A stretch of DNA of 64,000 nt from an uncultured delta proteobacterium (GCA_963848295.1 CAWKDB010000002.1:64001-128000), one strand, 5' to 3'. Shown: positions 45,536-59,904, numbered from the stretch's first letter. Numbers and translations: made by a program. Notes: a model not told the origin generated them from the letters alone.

Positions 45536-46540
45536 GTGGACACGGTCAGAGCCGGGTTTTGCGCGATCGTCGGCCTGCCCAATGTCGGCAAGTCGACGCT
45601 GCTCAACCGCATGCTCGGCAAGAAGCTGGTCGCGGTCTCGGCCAAGCCGCAGACCACGCGCGACCGGATCGTCGGCGTCCACATGGTCGAGCTGCCCGAC
45701 GCCGCCGAGGGCGAGCCCAACCGCGCGCAGATCGCCTACGTCGATACGCCCGGCTTGCAAGACGGCCGCGGCCCGCTGCGGCGCTACATGCGCGACGCGG
45801 CACTCGCCGCTGCGAGCGACGCCGATGCAGTGCTGCTGATCATCGATGCCACCGATCGCCGCGGGCGGGTGCCGGAGCGCCTCGATCAGCCCGACGCGAT
45901 CGCACTCGGCGCCGCGCGCAGGGGGCACCCGATCATCGTCGCACTCAACAAGGTCGATCGCATCGCGAAACCCGAGCTACTGCCGCTGATCGAGGCGTGG
46001 GCCAAGCTCGACGACGGCGTCGGTGTCGACGGCCGGGGCATGTACCCGGCCGGCAGCGCCGCCGAAGGGCGGCGCGGTTTGATCGACGTCGTGCCGATCT
46101 CGGCCGCGACCGGCGACAACGTCGAGGCACTCGAGCGCGCGATCGCCGCAAAGCTGCCGCCCGGACCGCCGATGTTTCCGCCCGAGATGATGACCGATCG
46201 ATCGCCGCAGTTCATCGCCGCGGAGATCATCCGCGAGCAGCTCTATCACCAGCTCGGCAAGGAGCTGCCGTACGCGTGCGCGGTCCAGATCGAGAGCTGG
46301 ACCGAACGCAAAGGCGAGCTCGTGATCGGCGCGATCATCGTCGTCGAGCGCGAGTCGCAGAAGGCGATCGTCGTCGGCCGCGCCGGCTCGCGGATTCGCG
46401 AGCTCGGGATCGCGGCGCGCGCGGCGGTCGGCGACGCGCTCGGCAAGACGACGCACCTCACGCTGCTCGTCAAGGTCGTCGACGAGTGGAGCCGCGGCGA
46501 GGCCTCGCTCGAGAAGCTCGGCTACGGCGGTAAGCCATGA
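45536..46540 (+). CDS. era: GTPase Era with a 19-aa insertion
   Basis: [32 protein letters not shown] domain. Confidence 0.96.
46026..46087 (+). repeat. Intragenic two-hairpin palindromic element, copy in era
   Basis: TCGAC-GGCCGGG..CCCGGCC-GG-CAGCGCCGCCGAAGGGCGGCGCGGTTTGA-TCGAC; the two TCGAC are 57 bp apart. Confidence 0.8.
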
Positions 46541-47968
46541 CCGAGCAGCATCTGCCGTTGGTCGCGATCGTCGGGCGGCCGAACGTCGGCAAGTCGACGC
46601 TGTACAACCGGCTCGTCGGCGGTCGGCCCGCGCTCGTCCACGACACGCCCGGCCTGACCCGCGATCGCCGCTACGGCGAGATCGATTACTACGGGCGTGG
46701 CTGGCGGATCGTCGACACCGGCGGCCTCGATCCCGATGCCGCGAACGAGGTGATCGGCGCAGGCATCCATCGCCAAGCGCTGCGCGCGATCGGCGAGGCC
46801 GACGCGATGGTGCTGGTCGTCGACGGGCGCGCCGGCGTGTCGGCGATCGATCACCAGCTCGCACGGCAGTTGCGCGCGACCGGCAAGCCGGTGTTCCTCG
46901 CGATCAACAAGATCGATCACTCGGTGCGCGACGACTTGGTGCACGAGTTCCACGAGCTCGGGCTCACCGCTTCGTATCCGGTCTCGGCGGCCCACGGCCG
47001 CGGCATCGACACGCTGCTCGAGGCGATCACCGAGGCGATCGACGCCCCGAAGATCGCGGCCGAAGCCGAGGAGCCCGAGCGCGATCTGCTGATGGAGCCG
47101 CCGACCGAAGCCGAAGAGATCGAAGCAGGCAAGCGCGAGCGCGAGCGCGATGCCGCGAGTGGGCCGCTGCGGGTCGCGTTCGTCGGCCGGCCGAACGCCG
47201 GCAAGTCGGCGCTGACCAATCGCCTGCTCGGCGAAGAGCGCTCGCTCGTCCATCACGAAGCCGGCACGACGACCGATCCGGTCGACTCGCCGTTCACGAT
47301 CGGCGACCGCAGCTACGTCTTGATCGATACCGCCGGGATTCGCCGCAAAGCGAAGATCGACGTCGACATCGAGAAGCTCGCGGTCACGATGGCGCTCGGT
47401 GCCGTCGCGCGCGCCGATGTCGCGGTGCTCGTGATCGACGCCGCCCTCGGTCCGGCCGAACAAGACGCGCGGATCGCCGGTAAGGTCGAGGAATCGGGAC
47501 GCGCGCTCGTGATCGCGCTCAACAAGTCCGACCTCGTCGTCGGCAGCGAGAAGCAGGCCGCGCTGCGCGATGCTGACCGAGGACACGTTCCACTTCATGC
47601 CGTGGGCGCCGGTCACGTCGCTGTCGGCGCAGCGCGGCGATGGTGTCGATCGCCTGCTCGATGTCGTCGATCGCGCGGCGGTCGAGCATCGCCGGCGGAT
47701 TCCGACCTCGCAGCTCAACCGGTTCTTCGCGGAGGTGATCGAAGAGATGCCGCCGCCGCTGCATCACGGCCGCGCGGTCAAGATCCATTACCTCACGCAA
47801 GCCGGGACCCGGCCGCCGACGTTCATCCTGTGGGCGAACACGCCCGATGGCCTCGCGCCGAGCTACAAGCGCTTCCTCGCGAACCGCCTGCGCGAAGCGT
47901 ACGGGTTTCGCGGCACGCCGCTGCGCATCTTCGTCAAGGCGCGCAAAGACCGGCACAAGGACGGCTAG
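46537..47968 (+). CDS. der: Ribosome biogenesis GTPase Der (frameshift near 47570)
   Basis: Two G domains (GRPNVGKS and GRPNAGKS), DTAGIRR, C-terminal KIHYLTQ...YGFRGTPL. Confidence 0.95.
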
Positions 47969-47977
47969 CGCCAGCGG

Positions 47978-48523
47978 CTAGAAGTAACCCCAGCGAATCG
48001 AGCCGCGCACGCCGAGCGTGAACACGGTGACATCGCCGCCGAACGACGCGAGCTTGCCTTCGATCCCGAACGAGCGCGATCGACTCGCGAGGAAGTCCAG
48101 GCCGCCGCCGACCACGAGCACCGCCTCGGTCGCGCGATCGATCGGGCCGCCGCCGGTGACCATCGCGCCCACGCCGCCGAACGCGTAGGGCACGTCGCGC
48201 AAGATGTCGAAACGGAACGTGACGCCGACATCGGCGACCGCGGCGTACGACTCGGCGGTCTGCTTCGCGCTCTGGCCGCCGGTAAACGCCGCACCGGCGA
48301 GGTCGGCACGCAGCGAGAAGTCGCTGCCGATCGCGTGCTCGTAGGTCGCACCGACGGCGACCCCCGCGTCCGGGGCAACCTGAGCGGGCGTCTTGTTGCC
48401 CATTTTCGGGCCCGGGGCGCTGAACGTGGCCCAACCGAGGTCGATCGAGAGCGCTCGGTCCCCCTCGGCGAGCGCGACGCCGGGCAGGGCCGCGAGGCAT
48501 GCGATCACGAGCCACGGGCGCAT
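47978..48523 (-). CDS. Small outer-membrane beta-barrel-like protein
   Basis: Signal peptide, [10 protein letters not shown]-terminal RWGYF. Confidence 0.7.
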
Positions 48524-48653
48524 CCGCAGCAACGGTCGCAATTCCCTGGGCAACAGTCCAGCCACCGCGCCAGTCCAAAGCCGCAACCCCCTGAATTGAC
48601 GTGCTGCCGACCCGGGTGCTACATCGTCCCGGTCCTTCGCCAGCAGGTGCCCC

Positions 48654-49430
48654 GTGGCCGAGAAATCCAAGAAGACCGATAAGGCTGCAAAGCCCGCAGC
48701 CACGCCCGACGCTGCGACCCCGAGGTTCGATCCCAAGCCGGTCGTCGTCGGCGGTGAATCGTTCGTCGAACGGTTGGTGCCGCACGTCAAGAAGATCGCG
48801 GTCGGCGCGGTCGTGCTCACCATCGTGCTCGCCGCGTTCTTTGGCTACCTCGCGTGGAAGCAAGGCAAGCGCGAAGACGCGACCGCCGAGCTGACCAAGG
48901 TGATCGAGATCTCCGACGCGCCGATCCGCGCCGCAGGCTCGGGCTCTGCGGACGACAAGAAGGCGCCGAGCTACGCGTCGGATGAAGACCGCACGAAGGC
49001 GATGCTCGCGGCGCTCGCGCCGGACGCGCCGTCGGGCCCGGTCTTTCGCGGCGCGCTGCTCGCCCGAGAGGGTCGTTACGACGACGCGCTCGCCGCGTAC
49101 CGCGAGGTCCAGACCGACCTCGGCTTCGAAGGCGTGCTCGCCCGCGAAGGCATCGGCCTCGCGCTCGAGGCGAAAGCCACGGCTCCGAAAACCGAGCCGA
49201 CCGTGCGCCAGAAGGGCCTCGAGGATGCGCTCGCCGAGTTCAAGGTGATGCAGCCCGACGAAAAGGGCCCGCGCCGAGCGTACGCGCTGTATCACCAGGG
49301 CCGGATCCTCGCGATGCTCGGCAAGCGCGACGAAGCGAAGGCTGCCTTCGAGCAGGCCAAGGCCGTCGGTAAGGCACCCGAGCTCGACGCCACGATCGAA
49401 GAGCGCTTGATCAACCTCGGAGCTTCGTGA
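48654..49430 (+). CDS. YfgM-like membrane-anchored TPR protein
   Basis: One TM helix plus TPRs; upstream of the BamB-like gene and near der. Confidence 0.75.
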   Translation: MAEKSKKTDKAAKPAATPDAATPRFDPKPVVVGGESFVERLVPHVKKIAVGAVVLTIVLAAFFGYLAWKQGKREDATAELTKVIEISDAPIRAAGSGSADDKKAPSYASDEDRTKAMLAALAPDAPSGPVFRGALLAREGRYDDALAAYREVQTDLGFEGVLAREGIGLALEAKATAPKTEPTVRQKGLEDALAEFKVMQPDEKGPRRAYALYHQGRILAMLGKRDEAKAAFEQAKAVGKAPELDATIEERLINLGAS

Positions 49431-50584
49431 AGTCCACCGGGTTCATCGCGATCGCCCTCGCTGCGGCGGGCTGCGTGCGCGTGCCCTATCAGAAGGCCGA
49501 CGCGATGAGCGCCGAGCCGGTCGAGCACCTCGGCGAGGATCGGCTGTCGCTGCACTGGAAGTTCTCGACCGCGGATCGCTCGACCGAGATCGCGCCGCAG
49601 GAGTTCGCCGCGGCCGCGCTCGCGGCGGATACGCTGTACGTCGGCTCGGCGAGCGGCTGGTTCTACGCGCTGCGCGCTGCGACCGGCACCAAGCGGTGGC
49701 GCAAGCGGATCGGCGCGGTCGCGTGTGCACCGCTCATCAGTCGCGGCGTGGTCTACATCGGCTCGACCGATGGCGTGCTCGTCGCGCTCGACGCGCAGAC
49801 CGGCGTCGAGAAATGGCGTTACCTGAGCCGCGGGCCGATCGAACAAACCCCGGTGCCGACCGGCGACATCATCGTGTTCGCGAACGAGGCCGACGAGGTC
49901 GTCGCGGTCGACGCCGTCACCGGCAAGTTCAAGTGGCACTTCAAGAGCGAGACCCCGGAGGACTACAAGCTGCGGGGTCACGCCGGCGTCGCGATCGACA
50001 ACGATCTGATCTACACCGGGTTCTCGAACGGCACGATGGTCGCGCTGCGCCGCGACACCGGCTCGGTCGCGTGGTCGACCTCGCTCAAAGGCGATGCCGA
50101 TCGATTCATGGATCTCGACGGCACGCCGTTGATCCTGGGCGACCGCATCTACGTCTCGGCGTCGTCGGGCGGCGTGTACGCGATGGACAAGGCGAGCGGC
50201 CTCGTCCGCTGGCACACGGCGTTCTGGGACGTCTCGCTGCCGAGCGCGACCGGCAACGTCGGCGGGTTGTCGAGCGATGGCAAGACGATCTACGTCAGCG
50301 TCGCCGACCTCGGAACGTATGCGATCGATCTCGCCGGCAACATCATCTGGCGCGTCGGCGCGCGCGGCGGCGGCGAGCCCGGCACGCCGGTGGTCGCGGG
50401 CGACTTGCTCGTCTATTCGCTCTCGAACGACGGCTTGTTCCTCGCCGATCGCAGATCGGGTGAAACGGTCGAGTACTTCGATCCGGGCGACGGCATCTCG
50501 GCGCAACCGACGATCACGGCCGATGGCCGGCTGTTCGTGATGTCGAACCGCGGCACGTTGTTCGCGTTCGACCTGGATGATTGA
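49427..50584 (+). CDS. bamB: BamB-like PQQ beta-propeller lipoprotein
   Basis: Lipobox AAGC; repeated ALDAxTGxxxW blades; synteny with yfgM-like gene and der. Confidence 0.7.
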   Translation: MKSTGFIAIALAAAGCVRVPYQKADAMSAEPVEHLGEDRLSLHWKFSTADRSTEIAPQEFAAAALAADTLYVGSASGWFYALRAATGTKRWRKRIGAVACAPLISRGVVYIGSTDGVLVALDAQTGVEKWRYLSRGPIEQTPVPTGDIIVFANEADEVVAVDAVTGKFKWHFKSETPEDYKLRGHAGVAIDNDLIYTGFSNGTMVALRRDTGSVAWSTSLKGDADRFMDLDGTPLILGDRIYVSASSGGVYAMDKASGLVRWHTAFWDVSLPSATGNVGGLSSDGKTIYVSVADLGTYAIDLAGNIIWRVGARGGGEPGTPVVAGDLLVYSLSNDGLFLADRRSGETVEYFDPGDGISAQPTITADGRLFVMSNRGTLFAFDLDD

Positions 50585-50620
50585 GCCGCCTCGATCGAGC
50601 CGCCGTCGGCGTCGGGCGGT

Positions 50621-51532
50621 CTAGAGCGGATCGCAGAACGGCGGCGCCGGCTTCGCGATCAAGTAGCCCTGGAGCAAGTCGCAACCGAGATCGACGAGCA
50701 CCTTCGCCTCGGCCTCGGTCTCGACGCCTTCACCGATCACCTGCATGCCGTGGCTGCGGCACAGCTCGGTGACCGAGCCGATCAGCCGTTGCTTCATCGC
50801 GTGCTTGTCGACGTCGCGAACGAGCGACATGTCGAGCTTGACGAAATCGGTGTCGAGCGGCGTGAACGTCTGCATCCGGGCGTGACCGCCACCCAGATCG
50901 TCGATCGCGATCTTGAACCCGAGCTCGCGTAGCTCGGCGACGCGGTAGCGGATGTCAGCCTGACCGTCGAGCGAGGTCCGCTCGGTGATCTCGAGCACGA
51001 CGCGGTGTGCGACCTTCGACAGCGGCGAGAACGGCGACGTCAGCTGCTTGTCGAGCAGATCGAGCAGGTGAAGATTCACGAACACGAGGCCGCGCTCGGC
51101 GGGCGACGCCGCGATCACCTGGGCGACCTGCGCACGTACCGCGCGCCCGAGCATCGGGATGCGCTCGAGGCGTTCGGCGGCATCGAGGATCGCCCCGGGG
51201 TGCGGTAGCGAGCGATCGCCGGAACGCAGCAGCGCCTCGTACGCGAACCGCGAGCGATCGCGCGCGTGGACGATCGGCTGGAAGTGCATCGCGAGGGACG
51301 CGAGGCACGCGTCGAGCTTGACCTCGAGCTCGCGGAGCTCGTGCGTACCGCGCTCGCCTTCGAACAGCGCCTGCGGTGACGTGCCCTTTGGAAAATCCTG
51401 TGCGGCCGGCTCGTCGAGCTCGATCGCGTGCATCGGCGCCGTCAAGGCGCGACCAGAGGTCGCACGGCCAGACGGTTGATCGGTACGCCGATCGGAGCCC
51501 ACGACACCATGGTAGCGCGAGGGTCGGCTCAC
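50621..51532 (-). CDS. Stand-alone EAL-domain protein (start uncertain)
   Basis: FQPIV, EALLR, FVN, LEITE, IAIDDLG, VKLD, EGVET, QGY. Confidence 0.9.
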   Translation of the reverse strand: MSRPSRYHGVVGSDRRTDQPSGRATSGRALTAPMHAIELDEPAAQDFPKGTSPQALFEGERGTHELRELEVKLDACLASLAMHFQPIVHARDRSRFAYEALLRSGDRSLPHPGAILDAAERLERIPMLGRAVRAQVAQVIAASPAERGLVFVNLHLLDLLDKQLTSPFSPLSKVAHRVVLEITERTSLDGQADIRYRVAELRELGFKIAIDDLGGGHARMQTFTPLDTDFVKLDMSLVRDVDKHAMKQRLIGSVTELCRSHGMQVIGEGVETEAEAKVLVDLGCDLLQGYLIAKPAPPFCDPL

Positions 51533-51592
51533 TCGCCAATCTAAGAATTCGACGACGATGTAGGCCCAGGACGCCGGACCATTCTAGGACAC

Positions 51593-52060
51593 CTAACAGA
51601 GCCGACGGAGGTGCTCGCGAAACTCGGCGACCACCGAAGACGCCAGATGGCCGTCGAGCTCCTGCGCCATCCGCTCGTCGATCACGGGGAGCTCGAGGAC
51701 GAGGCGGTACAGCATCAGGCATGCGCGCGCCGACAGCGGAACGAACCGGGCCTCACCGCTCAGCACGACGTTGGACGTATCCGGCGTAGTCCAGCTAACC
51801 GTCAGGGTCGTCGGATCGTAACGATATTCGAGGGTGTAGCCGAGCGAGCCGCGCTCGAGCCTGCGGGTGAACGTCACGCGTTCCGCCCGGCCGTCGTCGC
51901 GGCGGCTGACCACGTGCGCTTTCTGCAGGATCGGCAGCCACCGCGGAATCTCCGCGGCGTCTGCGAAGACCTCATAGGCGACGGAGGCGTTGACCGTCAG
52001 CGTGGTCGAGACCTCGCTGACGAGGGGGATGTCGGTGGGAAATGAGATCGCGGTGGCCAT
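51593..52060 (-). CDS. SRPBCC/START-like cyclase-dehydrase family protein
   Basis: YEVFADAAEIPRWLP...YTLEYRYD...VSW pattern. Confidence 0.8.
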   Translation of the reverse strand: MATAISFPTDIPLVSEVSTTLTVNASVAYEVFADAAEIPRWLPILQKAHVVSRRDDGRAERVTFTRRLERGSLGYTLEYRYDPTTLTVSWTTPDTSNVVLSGEARFVPLSARACLMLYRLVLELPVIDERMAQELDGHLASSVVAEFREHLRRLC

Positions 52061-52225
52061 GACTGCTCCTGCGCTCTTGTCCTACAGCAACCGCGATACC
52101 AGCCCGAGAGGGGCGATCGGCCACGTGGTTCTGCGGAGTTGAACGCGGCTCGGGCGGAAGACGATCGCGCCGCGGCAAGTCGAGTGGTCGCCTCCAACAG
52201 TCCCCGGTGCGCGTCTAGTGCAAAC

Positions 52226-55200
52226 CTAGCGCGGCGTCACGACGAGCCCGCGGTAGTCGAGCCGGGCACCCGCCGCCACCAGGGCCGCCGCCCACGGCGA
52301 GCTCGATGCGGCGGTCCCGTCGATCGTCTCGACCAAGAGCTCGCGACGACGTTGGCGAACGGCGAGCGCCGGCAGCGCGACGGCGAGCGCGTGCGCGACT
52401 TGCTCGTCGCCGACCGCGGCGGTCGCGATGCGATGGCCGCGCGGCTCGATCCACAGCGCGAGCTCGCCGTCGACCTGCGCGATCGCGGCGCCGACTCGGC
52501 GCGCCGGCCGCGCCGCAGGATCGCGCAGCGCCGGCCAGGGCAGGGCGCTGCCCCAGGCGCACGCCGGATCGAGCGCGGCGAGCAGGTCGACGTTGTGGCG
52601 AGGCCGCTCCCGTAGCCGGTCGATCGCCCCGGGCCACGCGAACTGCGCGCCCTCGAGCTCGGCGACGAAATAACCGCGGCGAACGACGCCGGCATCTTCC
52701 ATCGCGCGCAAGACGTCGCCGACGACCGCGAAGCCTCCCGGCAGCTCGTCGCTGCGCGCGGCCGCGCGACTCGCGATGCCCCAGCGCTCGAGCAAGCCTT
52801 CGGCGAGCATGTGCGCGCGATTCGTCGCGGTCGGCGGAGCGCCGAAGCTCGCGACCAACGACCAGCGACCGCCCGGCGATCTAACCGCACTGCCATTCGG
52901 CAGTGCTGCTGGCCGAGCGCGGGTCCCGGCGCGCGGCGCGTGGCCCGAGCCGCGGCGCGTCGCCGGTGCGGCGAGCGAGCGCAACGGCGCGAACGTATCG
53001 TTCGTGACCACGCCGGCCCACACCAGCTGCCACAGCGCCGCGGTGACGTCGGCACGCGAGGCGCGGGTCGCGGCCTCGAGGGCGACCAAGAACGACGCGC
53101 CCGCGGTCGCGAGATGCGCGGTGATCGCGGCGTGGAGCACGCCGTCGCCGGCGATCGGCTGCGCTGGCGGAGCGAGCCCGGCGGCTCGAGCGCGACGCAG
53201 CAGGATGACGCGACCATCTCGCGCGCCGAGCGCGCCCGCTCCGACCCACACGAGCTCGCCGGCGGCGCCGAGCTCGTCGAGCATGCGCGGGTGATAGTCC
53301 GCGATCCGCGCCGGCAAGATCCGGGACTCGAGCTCCGACATCGGCAGCGCGACACCCTCGAGCCGCGCGATCGCATCGCGCAACGCCCCGATCCCGCGCC
53401 GTGGTTGATCGAGCCCATGCCACCGCGGCAAGAACGCGGCGAACGTCGCCGGCGACACCGGCGCGACCTCGGCGCGCAGCTTGACGAGCGTGCGGCGGCG
53501 CAGCGTGCGCAGGACGTCCTGATCACAATTGTCGATCCCGACGCTTCCCGGGCGCAGCTCGCCCCGGACGAGCTCGCCACGAGTCTCGAGCAGGATCAGC
53601 ACCGGTTCGATCGTCGCGAGCGGCAGGGCCCAGCGCTCGGCGATCGCCTCGGCGCTGAAGATGCTGTGGGTCTTCGCGTAGCGCCGAATCAACGAGATCA
53701 ACGCGTCCGGTTCCGGCGTAGGCGTCGGTGACCCCAGGATCCCGCGATATCGAGCCTGATCGGCGGAGTCGATGATCCTGTGCTGTCCCGCGATCGTGAT
53801 CTCGACCGCGAGCTGCGCGGAGATCAGCTCGCTCACGCCTACGCTCGCGTTGACGCCTACGCATCGGACGCGTAGCTCGTCGATGGACAGATCGCCGAGC
53901 CTTCGCAAGAGATCGTGGAGCTCGTCGCGATCGCGCGCGCGACGGTCCTCGGCCGTGCGCTGGAGCTCGCTGTCGAGATCGGCGATCACGCTACTGTCGA
54001 GCAGCTCGCGCAGCTCACCGCCGCCGATCAGCTCGCGCAACAAGCCGCGATCGAGCGTCAGGGCCTGAGCCTTGCGCTCGGCGACCGGGGCATCTCCTTC
54101 GTACAGAAAAGCCGCGACGTAGTCGAACACGAGCGAGCGAGCGAACGGCGAGGCCATCGCGGTCTCCGCGGCCTCGACCCGGATCTCGCCGGACCGTAGC
54201 TGGCGCAAGATCGCGACGAGCGCGGGCACGTCGAAGATGTCGCGCAGACACTCGCGATAGGTCTCGAGCGTGATCGGAAACTGCGGGAACGCGAGCGCGA
54301 CGGCCATCAGCTGCTGCGCGCGCAGGCGCTGCGCCCACAATGGTGTGCGCTGGCCCGGGCGGCGGCGCGGCAGCAACAACGCACGCGCGGCGTTCTGGCG
54401 AAACTGGCTCGCGAACACGCTCGACCGGGCGAGCTCGTCGACCAGACGATGTTCGAACGTGTCGGGATCGAGGATCAGGGCGGCGTCGTCGGGGATGACA
54501 TCACCGTGGACGAACCGCAGCGCGATCCCGTCGTCGGTCCACATCGGGTGCACCGGATAGCCGAGTCGATCTTCGAGCTGGCGCGCGAGCACGAGGGCCC
54601 ACGGCGCGTGGACGCGGCCGCCGAACGGCGACAGGATGCACACCCGGACATCGCCGAGCTCGTCGCGGAACCGCTCGATCGTGATCGCGCGGTCGCTCGG
54701 CACCCCACCGGCGTGCGCGCGCTGCTCGGCGAGGTACGCGATCACGTTCGTCGCCGCGTGATCGTCGAGCGCATAGTCGGCGCGCAACCAGGCGTGGGTC
54801 ACCGCCGGATCTTCGTGCGCCAGCCGGCCATCGAGCTCGCGACAAAACGCGCCGAGCGCGACGCCGAGCTCGACCGGCCGGCCCGGACCCTCGCCGCGCC
54901 AGAACGGCATCTTGCCGGGCTCGCCCGGCGCCGGTCGCACGACGACGCGATCGCGCGTGATCGCCTCGATCCGCCACGTCGTCGCGCCGAGCACGAACGT
55001 CTCGCCGGGCCGGCTCTCGGCGACCATCTCCTCGTCGAGCTCACCGACCCGCGGCCCGTTCTCGCCGACGTGAACGCCGTAGCTGCCGCGATCCGGAATC
55101 GTGCCGCCCGAGGTCACCGCGATCAGCGCCGCGCCTCGGCGCGCGGTGAGCACGTCGGCCTGGCGATCCCAGACCAGTCGCGGTCGGAGCTCGGCGAACG

Positions 55201-56704
55201 CATCCGACGGATAGCGCCCGGCGAGCATATCGAGCACGGCGACGAACGCGGCCCGAGACAGGTCGCGGTAGCTCGCCGCGCGCCGGATCACGCGCTCGAG
55301 CTCGGGGACCGACCACGGTTCGACCGCGACCATGGCGACGATCTGCTGTGCGAGCACGTCGAGCGCATTGTCCGGAATCCGGACAGCTTCGACCGCGCCG
55401 TCGAGCATCCCGCGCGCCACGACCGCGGCCTCGAGCAGGTCGCCGCGGAACTTCGGGATGATCCGCCCGCGGCTCGTACCACCGACGTGATGGCCGGCGC
55501 GGCCGATCCGTTGCAAGCCACGCGCGACCGCGCCGGGTGACTCGACCTGGATCACGAGATCGACCGCGCCCATGTCGATGCCGAGCTCGAGCGACGAAGT
55601 CGCGACGATCGCGCGCAGCCGGCCGGCCTTCATCGCATCCTCGATCTCGACGCGGGCGTGACGCGCGACCGAGCCGTGATGGGCGCGCGCGAGCTCGGCG
55701 TTCTCGGGCGCGCGACCGGACTTCGCCGCGAGCTGATTCAGCTCCTGTGCGATTCGCTCGGCGAGCCGGCGCGAGTTGACGAAGATGATCGTGGTGCGAT
55801 GCGCGAGCACGAGGTCGAGCAGGCGCGGATAGATCAGCGGCCACATCCCGCCGGCGTCCTCGCGGCCACGCGCGGTCGATCCAACCGCACTGCCATTCGG
55901 CAGTGCTGACGTCGCGGGGCGAGCCCGCGACGTCGGGGTCGCGACCATGTCTTGGGCGGGGACCACGATCTGGAGATCCAGGGCAGGTCGGCTGCTCGCG
56001 TCGACGATCGCGACCGGTCGGTCCCCGCCGAGATATCGAGCCACTTCGCTAAGTGGACGTTGCGTCGCCGACAGGCCGATCCGCTGCGGTTCTGGCGAGC
56101 CGTGCGCGGTGACGAGGCGCTCGAGCCGCTCGAGGCTGAGCGCGAGGTGAACGCCTCGCTTGCCGCCGGCGAGGGCGTGGATCTCGTCGATGATCACGGT
56201 GTCGACCTCGGCGAGTCGCGCGCGCGAGCGGCCGGCGAGCAGCAGGTACAGCGACTCCGGCGTCGTGATCAGGATCTGGGCGGGCGCGACGAGCTGGCGG
56301 GCGCGCTCCTTGGCCGACGTGTCGCCGGTCCGCACGTCGATCGTGACGCTGCCGCCGATGCCGGCGAGCGGCGTGCGCAGATTCTTCTCGAGGTCGTACG
56401 CGAGCGCCTTGATCGGCGAGACGTAGACGACACGGGTGGTCGACCGAACCGCACCGCCATCCGGTGCTGCCGCCCCCGGGCGAGCCGGGACCGTCGATGC
56501 GGCGGGTTCGGGCCCGCGCAACAGGCGATCGAGGCACCACAAGAACGCCGCGAGCGTCTTGCCGCTGCCGGTGGGCGCCGCCATCAGGGTGTGACGGCCG
56601 GCGGCTACTTCGGCCCAGCCGCGGATCTGTACATCGGTCGGCTCGCCGAGCGCGCGACGGAACCACTCGCGAGTCGCGGGTGCGAAGCGGTCGAGCGCGA
56701 TCAC
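52226..56704 (-). CDS. lhr: Lhr-family ATP-dependent DEAD/DEAH-box helicase (long form)
   Basis: APTGSGKT, SPIKAL, TTPESL, DEIH, LSAT, HHGS, TSSLELGID, QRIGRAGH, GTIPD, GELDEE. Confidence 0.95.
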   Translation of the reverse strand: MIALDRFAPATREWFRRALGEPTDVQIRGWAEVAAGRHTLMAAPTGSGKTLAAFLWCLDRLLRGPEPAASTVPARPGAAAPDGGAVRSTTRVVYVSPIKALAYDLEKNLRTPLAGIGGSVTIDVRTGDTSAKERARQLVAPAQILITTPESLYLLLAGRSRARLAEVDTVIIDEIHALAGGKRGVHLALSLERLERLVTAHGSPEPQRIGLSATQRPLSEVARYLGGDRPVAIVDASSRPALDLQIVVPAQDMVATPTSRARPATSALPNGSAVGSTARGREDAGGMWPLIYPRLLDLVLAHRTTIIFVNSRRLAERIAQELNQLAAKSGRAPENAELARAHHGSVARHARVEIEDAMKAGRLRAIVATSSLELGIDMGAVDLVIQVESPGAVARGLQRIGRAGHHVGGTSRGRIIPKFRGDLLEAAVVARGMLDGAVEAVRIPDNALDVLAQQIVAMVAVEPWSVPELERVIRRAASYRDLSRAAFVAVLDMLAGRYPSDAFAELRPRLVWDRQADVLTARRGAALIAVTSGGTIPDRGSYGVHVGENGPRVGELDEEMVAESRPGETFVLGATTWRIEAITRDRVVVRPAPGEPGKMPFWRGEGPGRPVELGVALGAFCRELDGRLAHEDPAVTHAWLRADYALDDHAATNVIAYLAEQRAHAGGVPSDRAITIERFRDELGDVRVCILSPFGGRVHAPWALVLARQLEDRLGYPVHPMWTDDGIALRFVHGDVIPDDAALILDPDTFEHRLVDELARSSVFASQFRQNAARALLLPRRRPGQRTPLWAQRLRAQQLMAVALAFPQFPITLETYRECLRDIFDVPALVAILRQLRSGEIRVEAAETAMASPFARSLVFDYVAAFLYEGDAPVAERKAQALTLDRGLLRELIGGGELRELLDSSVIADLDSELQRTAEDRRARDRDELHDLLRRLGDLSIDELRVRCVGVNASVGVSELISAQLAVEITIAGQHRIIDSADQARYRGILGSPTPTPEPDALISLIRRYAKTHSIFSAEAIAERWALPLATIEPVLILLETRGELVRGELRPGSVGIDNCDQDVLRTLRRRTLVKLRAEVAPVSPATFAAFLPRWHGLDQPRRGIGALRDAIARLEGVALPMSELESRILPARIADYHPRMLDELGAAGELVWVGAGALGARDGRVILLRRARAAGLAPPAQPIAGDGVLHAAITAHLATAGASFLVALEAATRASRADVTAALWQLVWAGVVTNDTFAPLRSLAAPATRRGSGHAPRAGTRARPAALPNGSAVRSPGGRWSLVASFGAPPTATNRAHMLAEGLLERWGIASRAAARSDELPGGFAVVGDVLRAMEDAGVVRRGYFVAELEGAQFAWPGAIDRLRERPRHNVDLLAALDPACAWGSALPWPALRDPAARPARRVGAAIAQVDGELALWIEPRGHRIATAAVGDEQVAHALAVALPALAVRQRRRELLVETIDGTAASSSPWAAALVAAGARLDYRGLVVTPR
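52875..52936 (-). repeat. Intragenic two-hairpin palindromic element, lhr copy 1
   Basis: Coding strand GCCGGG-ACCCGCG-CTCGGC..CAGCACTGCCGAATGGCAGTGCGGTTAGATCG. Confidence 0.8.
55875..55936 (-). repeat. Intragenic two-hairpin palindromic element, lhr copy 2
   Basis: Coding strand GACGTCGCGGG-CTCGC-CCCGCGACGTC-AGCACTGCCGAATGGCAGTGCGGTTGGATCGAC; core matches copy 1 at 31 of 32 positions. Confidence 0.85.
56439..56497 (-). repeat. Intragenic two-hairpin palindromic element, lhr copy 3 (3-nt deletion)
   Basis: Coding strand TCGACGGTCCCGG-CTCGC-CCGGGGGCGG-CAGCACCGGATGGCGGTGCGGTTCGG-TCGAC; the two TCGAC are 54 bp apart. Confidence 0.75.
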
Positions 56705-57351: not shown

Positions 57352-58902
57352 TTATCGCGCGGGCGCCATGCGGTGGCCGAGTGACGAGATCTCGTCTTGG
57401 GTCAGGCCGCCCGATGCCTCGATCGTCACACTCGCCGCGCGCCCGGTGCCGACCTCGGTCGCGCTGACCTCGAGGATGCCGTCCGCGTTCATCGTGAAGC
57501 TGACCTCGACCTTCGTGTGGCCGCGCGGTGCCGACTTGAGATCGCCGAGGAAGAACTTGCCGAGCCGGCGGTTCTTCGACGCCGCCTCGTGCTCGCCTTG
57601 ATAGATCTCGATCTCGACGTACGTCTGGTCGTCGCCGTTCGTCGCCAAGATCTTCTTCGCGCGCGTCGGGATGCTGGTGTTCGCGCCGATCACGACCGAC
57701 ATGCGATCGCCGGTGAGCCTGACCCCGATGTTGTGAGGCGTCACGTCCAGCAGCACGACCTCTTGCAGCTCGCCGCCGATGATCCCGGAGTGGACGGCCG
57801 CGCCCATCGCGACGATCTCGTCGGGGTTGACGCCCTTGCTAGGCGGCTTGCCGAAGATCCGGACCGCACGTTCTTGCACGGCCGGCATGCGGCTCATCCC
57901 ACCGACGAGCACGATCTGGTCGATGTCGGCCGCCGTACAGTGCGCATCGGCGAGCGCCTTGGTGCACGGCTGTTCGAGGCGTTCGAGCAGCGCCTTGCAT
58001 GCGCGCTCGAGCTGACCGCGTTCGAGCTCGCGCATGAGGTGCATCGGTCCGCTCGGGCCCGCGGCGATGAACGGCAAGTTGATGTCGGTGGTCATCGCCG
58101 ACGACAGCTCGACCTTCGCCCGCTCGGCCGCCTCCTTGAGCCGCTGCAGCGCAACCGAATCGGCGCGCAGGTCGATGCCGTGCTGCGCCGCGAACTCGTC
58201 GGCGAGCAGATCGATGATCACGCGGTCGAAGTCGTCGCCGCCGAGCGCGGTATCGCCGTAGGTCGACAGGACCTCGAACACCCCGTTCTCGATCGCGAGG
58301 ATCGAGATGTCGAACGTCCCGCCGCCGAGGTCGAACACCGCGAGCCGCTGGTTGTGCTGGTGATGCACGCCGTACGCGAGTGCCGCCGCGGTCGGCTCGT
58401 TCAGGATCGCGCGCACGGTCAGGCCGGCGATCGCGCCGGCATCCTTGGTGGCTTGGCGCTGACCGTCGTCGAAGTACGCCGGCACGGTCACGACCGCCTC
58501 GGTCACTGGCTCGCCGAGATAGTCCTCGGCGACCCGCTTCATCTTCGCGAGCACGTGAGCCGAGATCTCTTGCGGCGATCGCGGGGTCTCGGCGATCTCG
58601 ACCCAGGCATCGCCGTTCTTGGCCGCGACGATCTTGTACGGCAACCGGCTCGCGAGGTGCTGGACCTCGCTCGCCTTGCGTCCGATCAGCCGCTTCGCGC
58701 CGTAGACCGTGCGATGCGGGTTCGTCACCATCTGGCGCTTGCTCGCCGCTCCGACGACGACTTCTCCGTCGGCGTTCCACGACACCATCGACGGCGTGGT
58801 CCGCCCGCCTTCTTGGTTGTGGATCACCACGGCCTCGCCGCCTTCGAGCACCGCAATGCACGAGTTCGTCGTCCCGAGATCGATCCCGATGACGCGGCTC
58901 AT
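57352..58902 (-). CDS. dnaK: DnaK-like Hsp70 paralog lacking the C-terminal lid
   Basis: GIDLGTTNS, TVPAYF, DLGGGTFD, LGGDDFD, VGGMSRMP, NPDE; only 516 aa, ending after SGGLTQDEI. Confidence 0.9.
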   Translation of the reverse strand: MSRVIGIDLGTTNSCIAVLEGGEAVVIHNQEGGRTTPSMVSWNADGEVVVGAASKRQMVTNPHRTVYGAKRLIGRKASEVQHLASRLPYKIVAAKNGDAWVEIAETPRSPQEISAHVLAKMKRVAEDYLGEPVTEAVVTVPAYFDDGQRQATKDAGAIAGLTVRAILNEPTAAALAYGVHHQHNQRLAVFDLGGGTFDISILAIENGVFEVLSTYGDTALGGDDFDRVIIDLLADEFAAQHGIDLRADSVALQRLKEAAERAKVELSSAMTTDINLPFIAAGPSGPMHLMRELERGQLERACKALLERLEQPCTKALADAHCTAADIDQIVLVGGMSRMPAVQERAVRIFGKPPSKGVNPDEIVAMGAAVHSGIIGGELQEVVLLDVTPHNIGVRLTGDRMSVVIGANTSIPTRAKKILATNGDDQTYVEIEIYQGEHEAASKNRRLGKFFLGDLKSAPRGHTKVEVSFTMNADGILEVSATEVGTGRAASVTIEASGGLTQDEISSLGHRMAPAR

Positions 58903-58968: not shown

Positions 58969-59904
58969 TCAGCGCCGGCGCTTCAGCGCGTCCGCCCGCG
59001 CAGATTTCGCGACCGCGAGCTCGCCGTCGAGCTGTAACGCGCGGTCGTACTCGAGGATCGCCTCCTCGAATCGCGACCCCGACTGCGCCTCGCGACCGCG
59101 CGCGTAACACAGCAGCGCTCGATACGCCTTGTTCTGCGGGACCTTCGCGGCGAGCGCATGTAACGCTTGGCGCGCCCCGCTCCAGTCGCTCGCGGCGAGC
59201 AACGCGGTCGCCTGCGAAGCCGCCGTGCGCTCGTCGAAAGCGGCGGCCGGCTGCACACCGCGTTGCGTATCGGGGTCGCGCTGGCCCGGTGCCGGGGGAG
59301 ACCCGAAGCGGACGATGGGGATGGTCGGGATGTTCTGCGTGATCGGCGCGTTCGGCGTGAGCGTGCGCGGCAGCGCGGGCCTGATCGGAACGCCGACCGC
59401 GGGCGTTGGCGTCTTGCTCGGGCTGACCGGCCGGGTCCCGCTCGGCGGAGTCGGCGACCGGGCCGAGCTCGCCGACGCGGGGCGAGTGCCGCTCGGCATC
59501 TGGCGCGGCGCCGGGCGCGCGGTGGTCGGCGCGGGCGAGCCGGGTCGCGGGGTCGCGAGCGTAGGGATCGGTCGGGTCGTCGGCTGCGACGCCTCCGCGA
59601 GCACCACCGGCATGCCGGCCGACGGCGGTCGCGGGCTCTGACCCGATGCGCGCAGCAACGTCTCGTGCGCCGACTTGATGCCGAGGAAGACCTCGTTCGA
59701 CAGCCGCTGCAGCTCGGGTGACATCCGGCCGAATCGCGCGGGGTGATAACGCTTGGTGAGCGCCAGGAATGCCGATCGCACTTGCTCGGGAGCCGACACG
59801 CCGGGCTCGAGCCCGAGCGCGCTATGAGGCCCCTGCTGGATCCGGGTCGCCATCTCCCCCAGCACGTTCCGGGCGCTTACTTCGTCGTCGGAACCAGACA
59901 CCAT
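58969..59904 (-). CDS. J-domain-like (HPA instead of HPD), Pro-rich linker and TPR protein
   Basis: HSALGL...VRSAFLALTKRYHPARF...FLGIKSAHETL; C-terminal TPR AILEYDRALQLD. Confidence 0.8.
   Translation of the reverse strand: MVSGSDDEVSARNVLGEMATRIQQGPHSALGLEPGVSAPEQVRSAFLALTKRYHPARFGRMSPELQRLSNEVFLGIKSAHETLLRASGQSPRPPSAGMPVVLAEASQPTTRPIPTLATPRPGSPAPTTARPAPRQMPSGTRPASASSARSPTPPSGTRPVSPSKTPTPAVGVPIRPALPRTLTPNAPITQNIPTIPIVRFGSPPAPGQRDPDTQRGVQPAAAFDERTAASQATALLAASDWSGARQALHALAAKVPQNKAYRALLCYARGREAQSGSRFEEAILEYDRALQLDGELAVAKSARADALKRRR

Follow-up and report, generated by a model that had tools for sequence, protein, structure and literature searches.

In-frame palindromic repeats are already known from bacterial genes (PMC3733652; PMC10969869; PMC3184786; PMC8266576; PMC4390886). 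Rickettsia palindromic elements (RPEs) lie in frame in unrelated housekeeping genes and have no known mobiliser (PMC10969869; PMC3733652), while the repetitive extragenic palindromes (REPs) have some of their copies within genes, among them uvrD and those for helicases and tRNA synthetases (PMC3733652). The way in which RPE-like coding palindromes move has been a standing question since 2000. The insertion sequences IS200/IS605 use the lagging-strand template, and IS91 is described as inserting at a tetranucleotide target with no duplication, with subterminal palindromes, single-stranded circles and a terIS cut at CTCG (PMC13181058). Here we analyse a 57-nucleotide, two-hairpin element that occurs four times in a stretch of 64,000 nucleotides from an uncultured delta proteobacterium (GCA_963848295.1 CAWKDB010000002.1:64001-128000; hereafter the window, whose numbering is used throughout), once in era and three times in lhr. 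Copies of this element are present throughout the host genome (G000), and we are highly confident that it is a target-specific mobile element, by whatever mechanism it moves.

The family comprises about 200 copies in G000 (7.78 Mb, 85% complete), which is far beyond chance: with an nhmmer profile, 188 copies were recovered when the threshold was E<=0.01 and 207 when it was E<=0.1, and none with either in the reversed genome. The initial annotation of the window had proposed a lineage-specific, non-autonomous element that colonises permissive protein loops, and this proposal is upheld by the further copies in the genome, by empty orthologous sites and by covarying stems. Indeed, the element is multicopy, occupies sites that are filled or empty according to lineage, keeps its structure over its sequence, has a frame-preserving length inside genes and occurs in both orientations.

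The sites in the window are young. The sister genome G104, in which Era is 97-98% identical and the flanks about 90%, is empty at all four of them, with gaps of exactly 57, 57, 57 and 54 nucleotides, and the four copies are therefore recent insertions. The element was also absent from 29 other era loci and from the lhr loci of five genomes, so that the inserted peptides are not ancestral sequence retained in orthologues. In the reverse comparison, where a pattern search gave at least 128 matches in G104, 65 copies were looked at. Full orthologous flanks were missing for 12; among the 53 with alignable flanks, 35 sites are empty in G000 (24 by exactly 57 nucleotides), 17 are shared (three of them from one array) and one is unclear. 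Two shared sites hold one copy in G104 and four in G000. The shared copies have not changed faster than the sequence around them (49/456 versus 120/960 differences in eight pairs, one of which is a mismatched tandem neighbour), by which a fast evolution of the element after insertion was rejected. Since the shared copies diverge like flanks and yet 112 of 120 G000 copies are unique in sequence, many copies probably act as sources.

The era gene (45536..46540, plus strand; GTPase Era, 334 amino acids, NCBIfam NF000908 above cut-off) carries its copy in sense orientation at 46030..46086, which adds 19 amino acids and corresponds to an exact 57-nucleotide gap in G104. To its left lies TCGA (46026..46029), probably the host-derived target, judging from the single ATCGAC of the G104 empty site and from the breakpoint tallies given below. 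The copy consists of hairpin 1 (46030..46052; an 8-bp stem, which pairing of the flanking GA can extend, and a 7-nucleotide loop with near-invariant C..G), an RKCA tetranucleotide at the 5' foot of hairpin 2 (46052..46055, that is -35 to -32 from the right end), which covariation with flanking bases makes a candidate guide, hairpin 2 (46056..46075; 8-bp stem, c-GNAB-g loop GAAG) and the tail GGTTNGA with a terminal TCGA (46076..46086), which the conservation of the right-end T indicates to be encoded by the element. The insert sits in a loop whose length already varies among Era orthologues; in an AlphaFold2 model (10-sequence alignment, mean pLDDT 66) it corresponds to residues 160-180, which are modelled with low confidence and lie between a helix and a strand. 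The expectation that removal of 57 nucleotides would restore a normal era held as far as the clean empty site in G104 is concerned, but the residues there are GIDVVPISA and not the predicted GVDVVPISA.

The lhr gene (52226..56704, minus strand) encodes an ATP-dependent helicase of 1492 amino acids, whose best family match, NF007284, is below its cut-off and which matches the solved Lhr chain 7lhl at E=0. All its copies are in sense orientation: copy 1 (56440..56493) has 54 nucleotides owing to a 3-nucleotide deletion in hairpin 2 and was found identical in one short-read contig, copy 2 (55876..55932) has 57 nucleotides and the target CCGA, matching the empty site CCGAC in G104, and copy 3 (52876..52932), also of 57 nucleotides, has more decayed ends. 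In contigs from three DNA sequencing runs no listed joint skips an element, which is no evidence either way. The initial annotation had placed the four copies correctly in position and strand, and its conserved core, the compensatory change GCC/GGC versus ACT/AGT, the second upstream hairpin, the CTCGC loop shared by two copies, the 57/57/54 spacing of the flanking pentamers and the use of two reading frames were all borne out. Beside the era copy, the neighbouring der (engA, 46537-48021) has one extra base (about 47570) relative to G104 and is thereby frameshifted, probably by an assembly error in an essential gene. The window also holds a 516-amino-acid gene (57352-58902), presumably DnaK-like from its N-terminal motif, and an adjoining gene at 58969 that we take to be J-domain-like.

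Within genes the length of the element is strictly kept in frame. With a home-made hexamer model (6539 gene calls, start positions approximate), 133 copies of at least 35 bits were assigned to gene interiors (85), intergenic regions (26) and gene edges (22). All 85 gene-internal copies are multiples of three (83 of 57 and 2 of 54 nucleotides), compared with 40 of 48 elsewhere (p=2e-4), and the codon phase of the inserts follows the phase of TCGA in genes. One variant of the tail, which in the main sense frame would read TAG, is present in none of 17 copies in that frame and in 10 of 49 antisense ones (p=0.053). These patterns suggest that the inserts are translated. The share of gene-internal copies nevertheless falls short of the 90% of TCGA sites that lie in genes, even with those at edges, and coding copies are thus under-represented. 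Insertion in coding orientation, which the initial annotation had noted, holds for the four window copies but not as a rule, the 83 internal 57-nucleotide copies being 56 antisense and 27 sense; with tandems collapsed and a lower cut-off the numbers are 54 antisense versus 34 sense (p=0.04). Tandem arrays with an exact period of 57 are common. At two loci (L133, L352) mosaic arrays mix full and internally deleted units and are translated as repeats within a gene.

The order of parts seen in era is general: target NTCGA, hairpin 1 and hairpin 2 with 8-bp stems on either side of RKCA, then GGTTNGA and the terminal TCGA. The flanking pentamers suggested a target-site duplication, and this was not confirmed. 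In 90 non-tandem copies the agreement between left and right flanks was at chance at the variable positions (offset 0, 56/90 with 55.9 expected; +3, 60/90 with 57.0 expected), and a 5-bp duplication was rejected; the CG is almost invariant, so that a duplication of these 2 bp would not show in this test. At +7 there is an unexplained excess of agreement (33 versus 21.7). When 30 filled/empty pairs were compared, the empty site sided with the left flank at positions 0 to +3 (5:3, 2:0, 1:0, 3:0; 11 versus 3) and with the right flank at +4 and beyond (6:2, 10:4, 17:1), from which the left tetramer is read as the target and the right one as the element's own. In keeping with such ends, the right-end T is found in 189 of 191 copies and the left one in 128 of 191, and rebuilt targets are TCGA in 45 of 90 cases, compared with 7.5% of genomic CG sites. 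What speaks against the left tetramer as target is that left +3, a position with links to internal ones, is C in 7/7 members of one subfamily; a base encoded by the element would fit this, and so would a choice of target by pairing. We therefore hold with moderate confidence that insertion occurs just 3' of a target NTCGA, with no duplication, and that the element ends in its own TCGA.

Both hairpins are conserved as structures. Double-sided changes were found in 11 of 18 stem pairs in a 28-copy alignment and in 14 of 18 among 73 copies from other genomes, and in this larger material both stems covary, as had been anticipated from the four window copies; the covariation score exceeded that of all shuffles, and slid controls were surpassed as well, although kinship and model fitting inflate these numbers. 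DNA-folding z-scores against shuffles were -4.3 for the era copy and -5.9 for the lhr copy at 55875, which thus stand well apart from the shuffles, but only -1.9 and -1.4 for the other two, which do not. The loop of hairpin 2 reads c-G-N-A-B-g in 110 of 120 G000 copies (GNRA in one) and in 68 of 73 from other genomes, that of hairpin 1 has C..G in 113/120, and 56/120 hairpin-1 loops fit d(gCNNGc). The motifs d(cGNABg) and d(gCNNGc) are two of the four extra-stable DNA tetraloop motifs described (PMC2275088). Moreover, G-T pairs outnumber A-C pairs on the same strand (80 versus 50, p=0.01), and that this one strand is the folded one is supported rather than proven. In most cases the folding strand does not correspond to the mRNA, so that the relevant fold is most likely one of single-stranded DNA. 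The suggestion of a structured RNA signal is not supported, given the antisense majority among gene-internal copies and a loop motif known from DNA. Two further links were rejected, namely one between loop-2 position 4 and the flank, and a copying of hairpin 1 from the target, whose empty sites do not match its arm. In 54-nucleotide variants from other genomes (loci L109, L116, L117, L135, L142, L143) the c-GNAB-g loop often occurs, by eye, in hairpin 1 too (GAAC, GGAC, GCAC).

As to the mechanism, we lean, by a narrow preference, towards a non-autonomous mini-transposon of single-stranded DNA, similar to IS200/IS605 or IS91 and moved in trans by an HUH enzyme. A selfish 57-nucleotide element has inserted at TCGA-like sites genome-wide, in frame inside genes, and probably moves as a folded single DNA strand that a Y1- or Y2-type HUH enzyme would cut and join. 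The strand might be excised or copied as a circle with the junction ...GATCGA|YGG..., and the internal RKC may pair with GAY at both junctions and at the target, which would steer the cut between A and Y. Because about 90% of the targets lie in genes, only lengths divisible by three (57, 54, 51) would spread; copies would then persist in tolerant loops, and tandem arrays may arise later by slippage or by re-insertion at the element's own end.

The pairing of RKC with the target GAY, like a guide, is a candidate feature that makes predictions for the flanking bases. RKCA has the position, 5' of the hairpin foot, in which IS200/IS605 carry their guide (PMC6006769). The foot of hairpin 2 is GGCA, AGCA, GTCA or ATCA in 194/212 copies, and the covariation seen in these 212 single copies, counted after removal of duplicates (G000 contributing 79 and other genomes 133; genomes pooled, copies related), is as predicted: when the first position of RKCA (-35) is A, the next base beyond the element is T in 24 of 51 copies, compared with 23 of 155 for G (p=1e-5), and when the second position is T, left +3 is A instead of C in 38/39 copies, compared with 126/163 (p=0.002). 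An extended form of this reading, a self-guiding 57-nucleotide transposon in which one RKC reads both junction and target, a point change retargets the element, length has evolved in threes and an undescribed, possibly host-domesticated enzyme does the work, is put forward only tentatively.

Several observations weigh against movement by an HUH enzyme with a built-in guide. The breakpoint rests on few informative sites; the -35 link is weak in G000 alone (9/21 versus 11/56, p=0.047), and 32 empty sites show the same trend without significance (4/7 versus 5/25). A crossover wandering within TCGAY, or the shared ancestry of copies, could give a similar signal. The pairing is linear, whereas guide pairing in IS608 follows a cross pattern and would predict another guide. 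The orientation of copies shows no replichore bias (72 versus 73 of 145 loci, replichores drawn roughly from GC skew). No mobiliser linked to the element was found, neither in G000, where incompleteness and the frequent failure of repeats to assemble mean that a missing enzyme is not proof of absence, nor elsewhere. The nine Y1 genes of G000 (Pfam Y1_Tnp) have no copy nearer than 2.0 kb, and there was no true covariance-model match in 39 Y1 loci or in 91 loci around Y2, Y1, reverse transcriptase (RT) genes and a second Y1-like family. Among 80 metagenome loci with enough flank, neither a long, autonomous form nor, by eye, a right end lacking the upstream hairpin 1 was seen, and an autonomous tnpA element with the same ends was found neither there nor among the half-element matches of G000 nor in the Y1 loci. 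The search for a RAYT or insertion-sequence transposase flanked by the same hairpins, which the initial annotation had proposed, was thus negative.

Individual candidates for the mobiliser were also discarded: Y1, a second Y1-like family, the Y2 of IS91, IS110, RTs and integrases neither have the element at their flanks nor follow its presence from genome to genome. Y1 genes occur in 88 of 91 genomes of the genus, and their presence is therefore uninformative. Seven of the nine Y1 genes of G000 form a Y1/RAYT-like family (L003-L008, L010), which has its own ends, which are unrelated to the element; its proteins carry an N-terminal basic RRGG..GRKP motif, and upstream lies a hairpin-rich region of about 370 nucleotides that is also present without the gene. 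A divergent Y1 gene has a 79% match in G104 but none at E<=1e-45 in the element-rich G049. The second Y1-like family (L494, G000:C10:3663593-3664411), which we take to be such from a motif and which has no Pfam match at 1e-12, comprises five copies with irregular tandem direct repeats at the flanks and has homologues in 70 of the 91 genus genomes; it was not found in the element-rich G053, G063, G069, G073 and G083. The Y2 enzyme of IS91 is patchy and does not track the element either, since G101 has 17 Y2 matches and no elements, while G104, G049, G053 and G063 have no Y2 and at least 51 elements; no element match occurred in 30 Y2 loci. Four multi-copy repeat families were likewise rejected, three ending in terminal inverted repeats unlike the element and the fourth being the second Y1-like family. 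Repeats with terminal inverted repeats have been recently active in G000, in sizes of about 2.3 kb (nine copies), 1.65 kb (seven), 1.2 kb (six) and 1.3 kb (four), for example at C10:385817-388177, C10:3247346-3249032 and C10:2040694-2041914. Among the 22 largest clusters of genes recurring beside copies in other genomes, judged by eye, were kinases, an outer-membrane assembly protein and other hosts, and no transposase.

Of the other explanations, the integration of a small circle by a site-specific recombinase (tyrosine, serine, IS110-type or integron-like), with crossover in a short shared core TCGAY, survives best, though we consider it unlikely. It would account for the resemblance of the tandem junction to the target, for the tracking of element subfamily by flank base +4, for the 4 of 12 informative empty sites that follow the left side at +4, and for the lack of a replichore bias. 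However, G000, as far as assembled, has no IS110 DEDD domain, the 13 integrase loci tested are all at least 6 kb from any copy, and two short hairpins with DNA-stable loops point to recognition of a single strand. Identity with attC sites of integrons was rejected on shape, attC being one long hairpin with R boxes. Still less probable is an enzyme-free origin, in which template switching during replication or gene conversion is primed at TCGAY microhomology, as for the tandem units of mycobacterial interspersed repetitive units (MIRUs) with variable copy number (MIRU-VNTR). The commonness of arrays with exact period 57, including those with four copies in G000 and one in G104, the uniqueness of nearly all copies, as if there were many sources, and the missing mobiliser speak for it; against it stand the exact insertions of whole units at dozens of unlinked sites after G104 had split off, the loop and tail bases strictly conserved throughout the genus, and copy numbers from 0 to over 100 between congeners.

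We regard as improbable to a further degree a retro-element, in which a retron or group II RT would turn an RNA copy into DNA for integration. Three RT genes of G000 are above the Pfam cut-off, copies are highly diverse and the hairpins of multicopy single-stranded DNA (msDNA) are single-stranded DNA, but no element copy lies within 7 kb of any of these RT genes, neither a truncation series nor a duplication is seen, and copies in place have not outpaced their flanks in divergence. A host-selected RNA or DNA signal (a pause, processing or binding site) placed in genes is very improbable, for although the structure is conserved and several DNA and RNA helicases are among the hosts, as described for intragenic REPs (PMC3733652), the copies occur in both orientations with an antisense majority, their sites are not kept between sister genomes, coding copies are under-represented relative to TCGA sites, and Rfam gave no match above gathering score in the 64-kb window.

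The family is essentially confined to one genus of the Kofleriaceae, which are soil myxobacteria, and is patchy within it. A covariance model built from 28 copies and scanned against 90 other genomes of the genus matched 57 of them, with 1 to at least about 57 copies per genome; G010 (one match, one era locus) and G057 (no match) are unpublished genomes counted in the tallies for the genus. G000, G104, G049, G053 and G063 are rich in the element, and G101, G103, G014 and G097 gave no match. Outside the genus, single weak matches (E>=2e-6) were obtained in 6 of 30 genomes of the order. The exact tail pattern occurs at 82 loci among 185,579 species genomes, and the 80 that were listed have Kofleriaceae titles or are unclassified metagenome-assembled genomes (two labelled Deltaproteobacteria or Acidobacteriota, one Frankiales locus), with no Rickettsia among them; it occurs at 110 metagenome loci and was not matched in viral contigs. 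Versions of 54 and 51 nucleotides with a shorter hairpin 1 exist in other lineages.

Apart from era and lhr, which were identified separately, 63 of the 65 host genes in G000 were scanned against Pfam, and they include argS, an EF-G paralogue, UvrD, RecG, PlsX, two penicillin-binding proteins, CinA, a second Lhr-like protein and several kinases; 25 have no Pfam match at 1e-12. The argS gene (G000:C11:700334-702295), the only one that tblastn finds in the assembly, carries five tandem antisense units that amount to 95 amino acids, and its site in G104 has no element. In other genomes, a BamA-like outer-membrane assembly gene (by eye) recurs at six element-bearing loci (L074, L343, L344, L359, L395, L439) and kinase genes at 14, which may be hot spots.

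A better knowledge of this family is of general importance, since it has hundreds of young copies, sister genomes with filled and empty sites, a target that is defined, a DNA fold specific to one strand and a candidate for a guide, all of which RPE-like palindromes lacked and by which the mechanism of a coding palindrome becomes directly testable. It also constitutes a natural insertion screen for tolerant loops in essential proteins (Era, arginyl-tRNA synthetase, penicillin-binding proteins), in which selfish DNA adds peptide sequence to the proteome over short evolutionary times. Should the self-guiding reading be true, the element would be among the smallest two-ended mobile elements and a continuing source of new protein loops, of up to 95 amino acids in the single arginyl-tRNA synthetase.

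With RPEs the element has in common the in-frame insertion into genes. RPEs, however, are about 150 bp long with 44 insertions reported in R. conorii, whereas the present element is shorter and more numerous, has two separate hairpins and a defined TCGA target, and resides in the large genome of a free-living host. REPs, REPINs and intragenic REPs, for instance those of Opitutus terrae, are described as short GC-rich hairpins with lineage bursts and tandem clusters (PMC3733652), as here, but the element has no unpaired GTAG/GTGG or CGTC tag, CGTC being found only inside stem 1 and on the opposite strand. Its two hairpins differ in sequence and are not inverted copies as in REPINs, it is mostly gene-internal (85 of the 133 strong copies, 26 intergenic), and no RAYT gene flanked by it was found in the 85% of the genome available. 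[quoted passage not shown] MIRUs resemble it in size (40-100 bp), in their 40-50 copies, in GC-rich internal inverted repeats and in tetranucleotide direct repeats at filled sites (PMC3184786), but they are described as intergenic and overlapping gene ends, while the element lies mostly deep in genes, a comparison made by description and not by sequence. The small dispersed repeats (SDRs) of cyanobacteria are likewise very small mobile repeats, and SDR5 is reported to insert precisely at one constant point of a palindromic motif of the genome (PMC4390886); they belong to another phylum, their target is HIP1, and the likeness is drawn from description only.

The closest likeness in design is to single-strand systems. 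IS200/IS605 are described as having strand-specific subterminal hairpins of 20-25 nucleotides at both ends, a left target tetranucleotide and a right terminal tetranucleotide, no duplication, and a tetranucleotide at the hairpin foot (PMC6006769). The present element likewise has strand-specific hairpins near both ends and, with moderate support, inserts 3' of a conserved tetranucleotide with no duplication and ends in a fixed one. In contrast to IS200/IS605, its left hairpin begins directly at the junction, one and the same tetramer stands at both ends, pairing is linear, and neither a lagging-strand bias nor a cognate tnpA element was detected. IS91 shares the lack of duplication, the tetranucleotide target and the palindromes near the ends, but the functional ends of a mini-IS91 are 82 and 89 bp (PMC13181058), each longer than the whole element, and the presence of Y2 does not track it. 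A literature search, for which most subscription papers and supplements were outside scope, yielded no description of the family, including in myxobacteria. The element thus belongs neither to the REPs/REPINs nor to the MITEs, RPEs or IS91, and shows part of the defining features of IS200/IS605: it resembles RPEs and intragenic REPs in its effect and the ends of IS200/IS605 or IS91 in its design.

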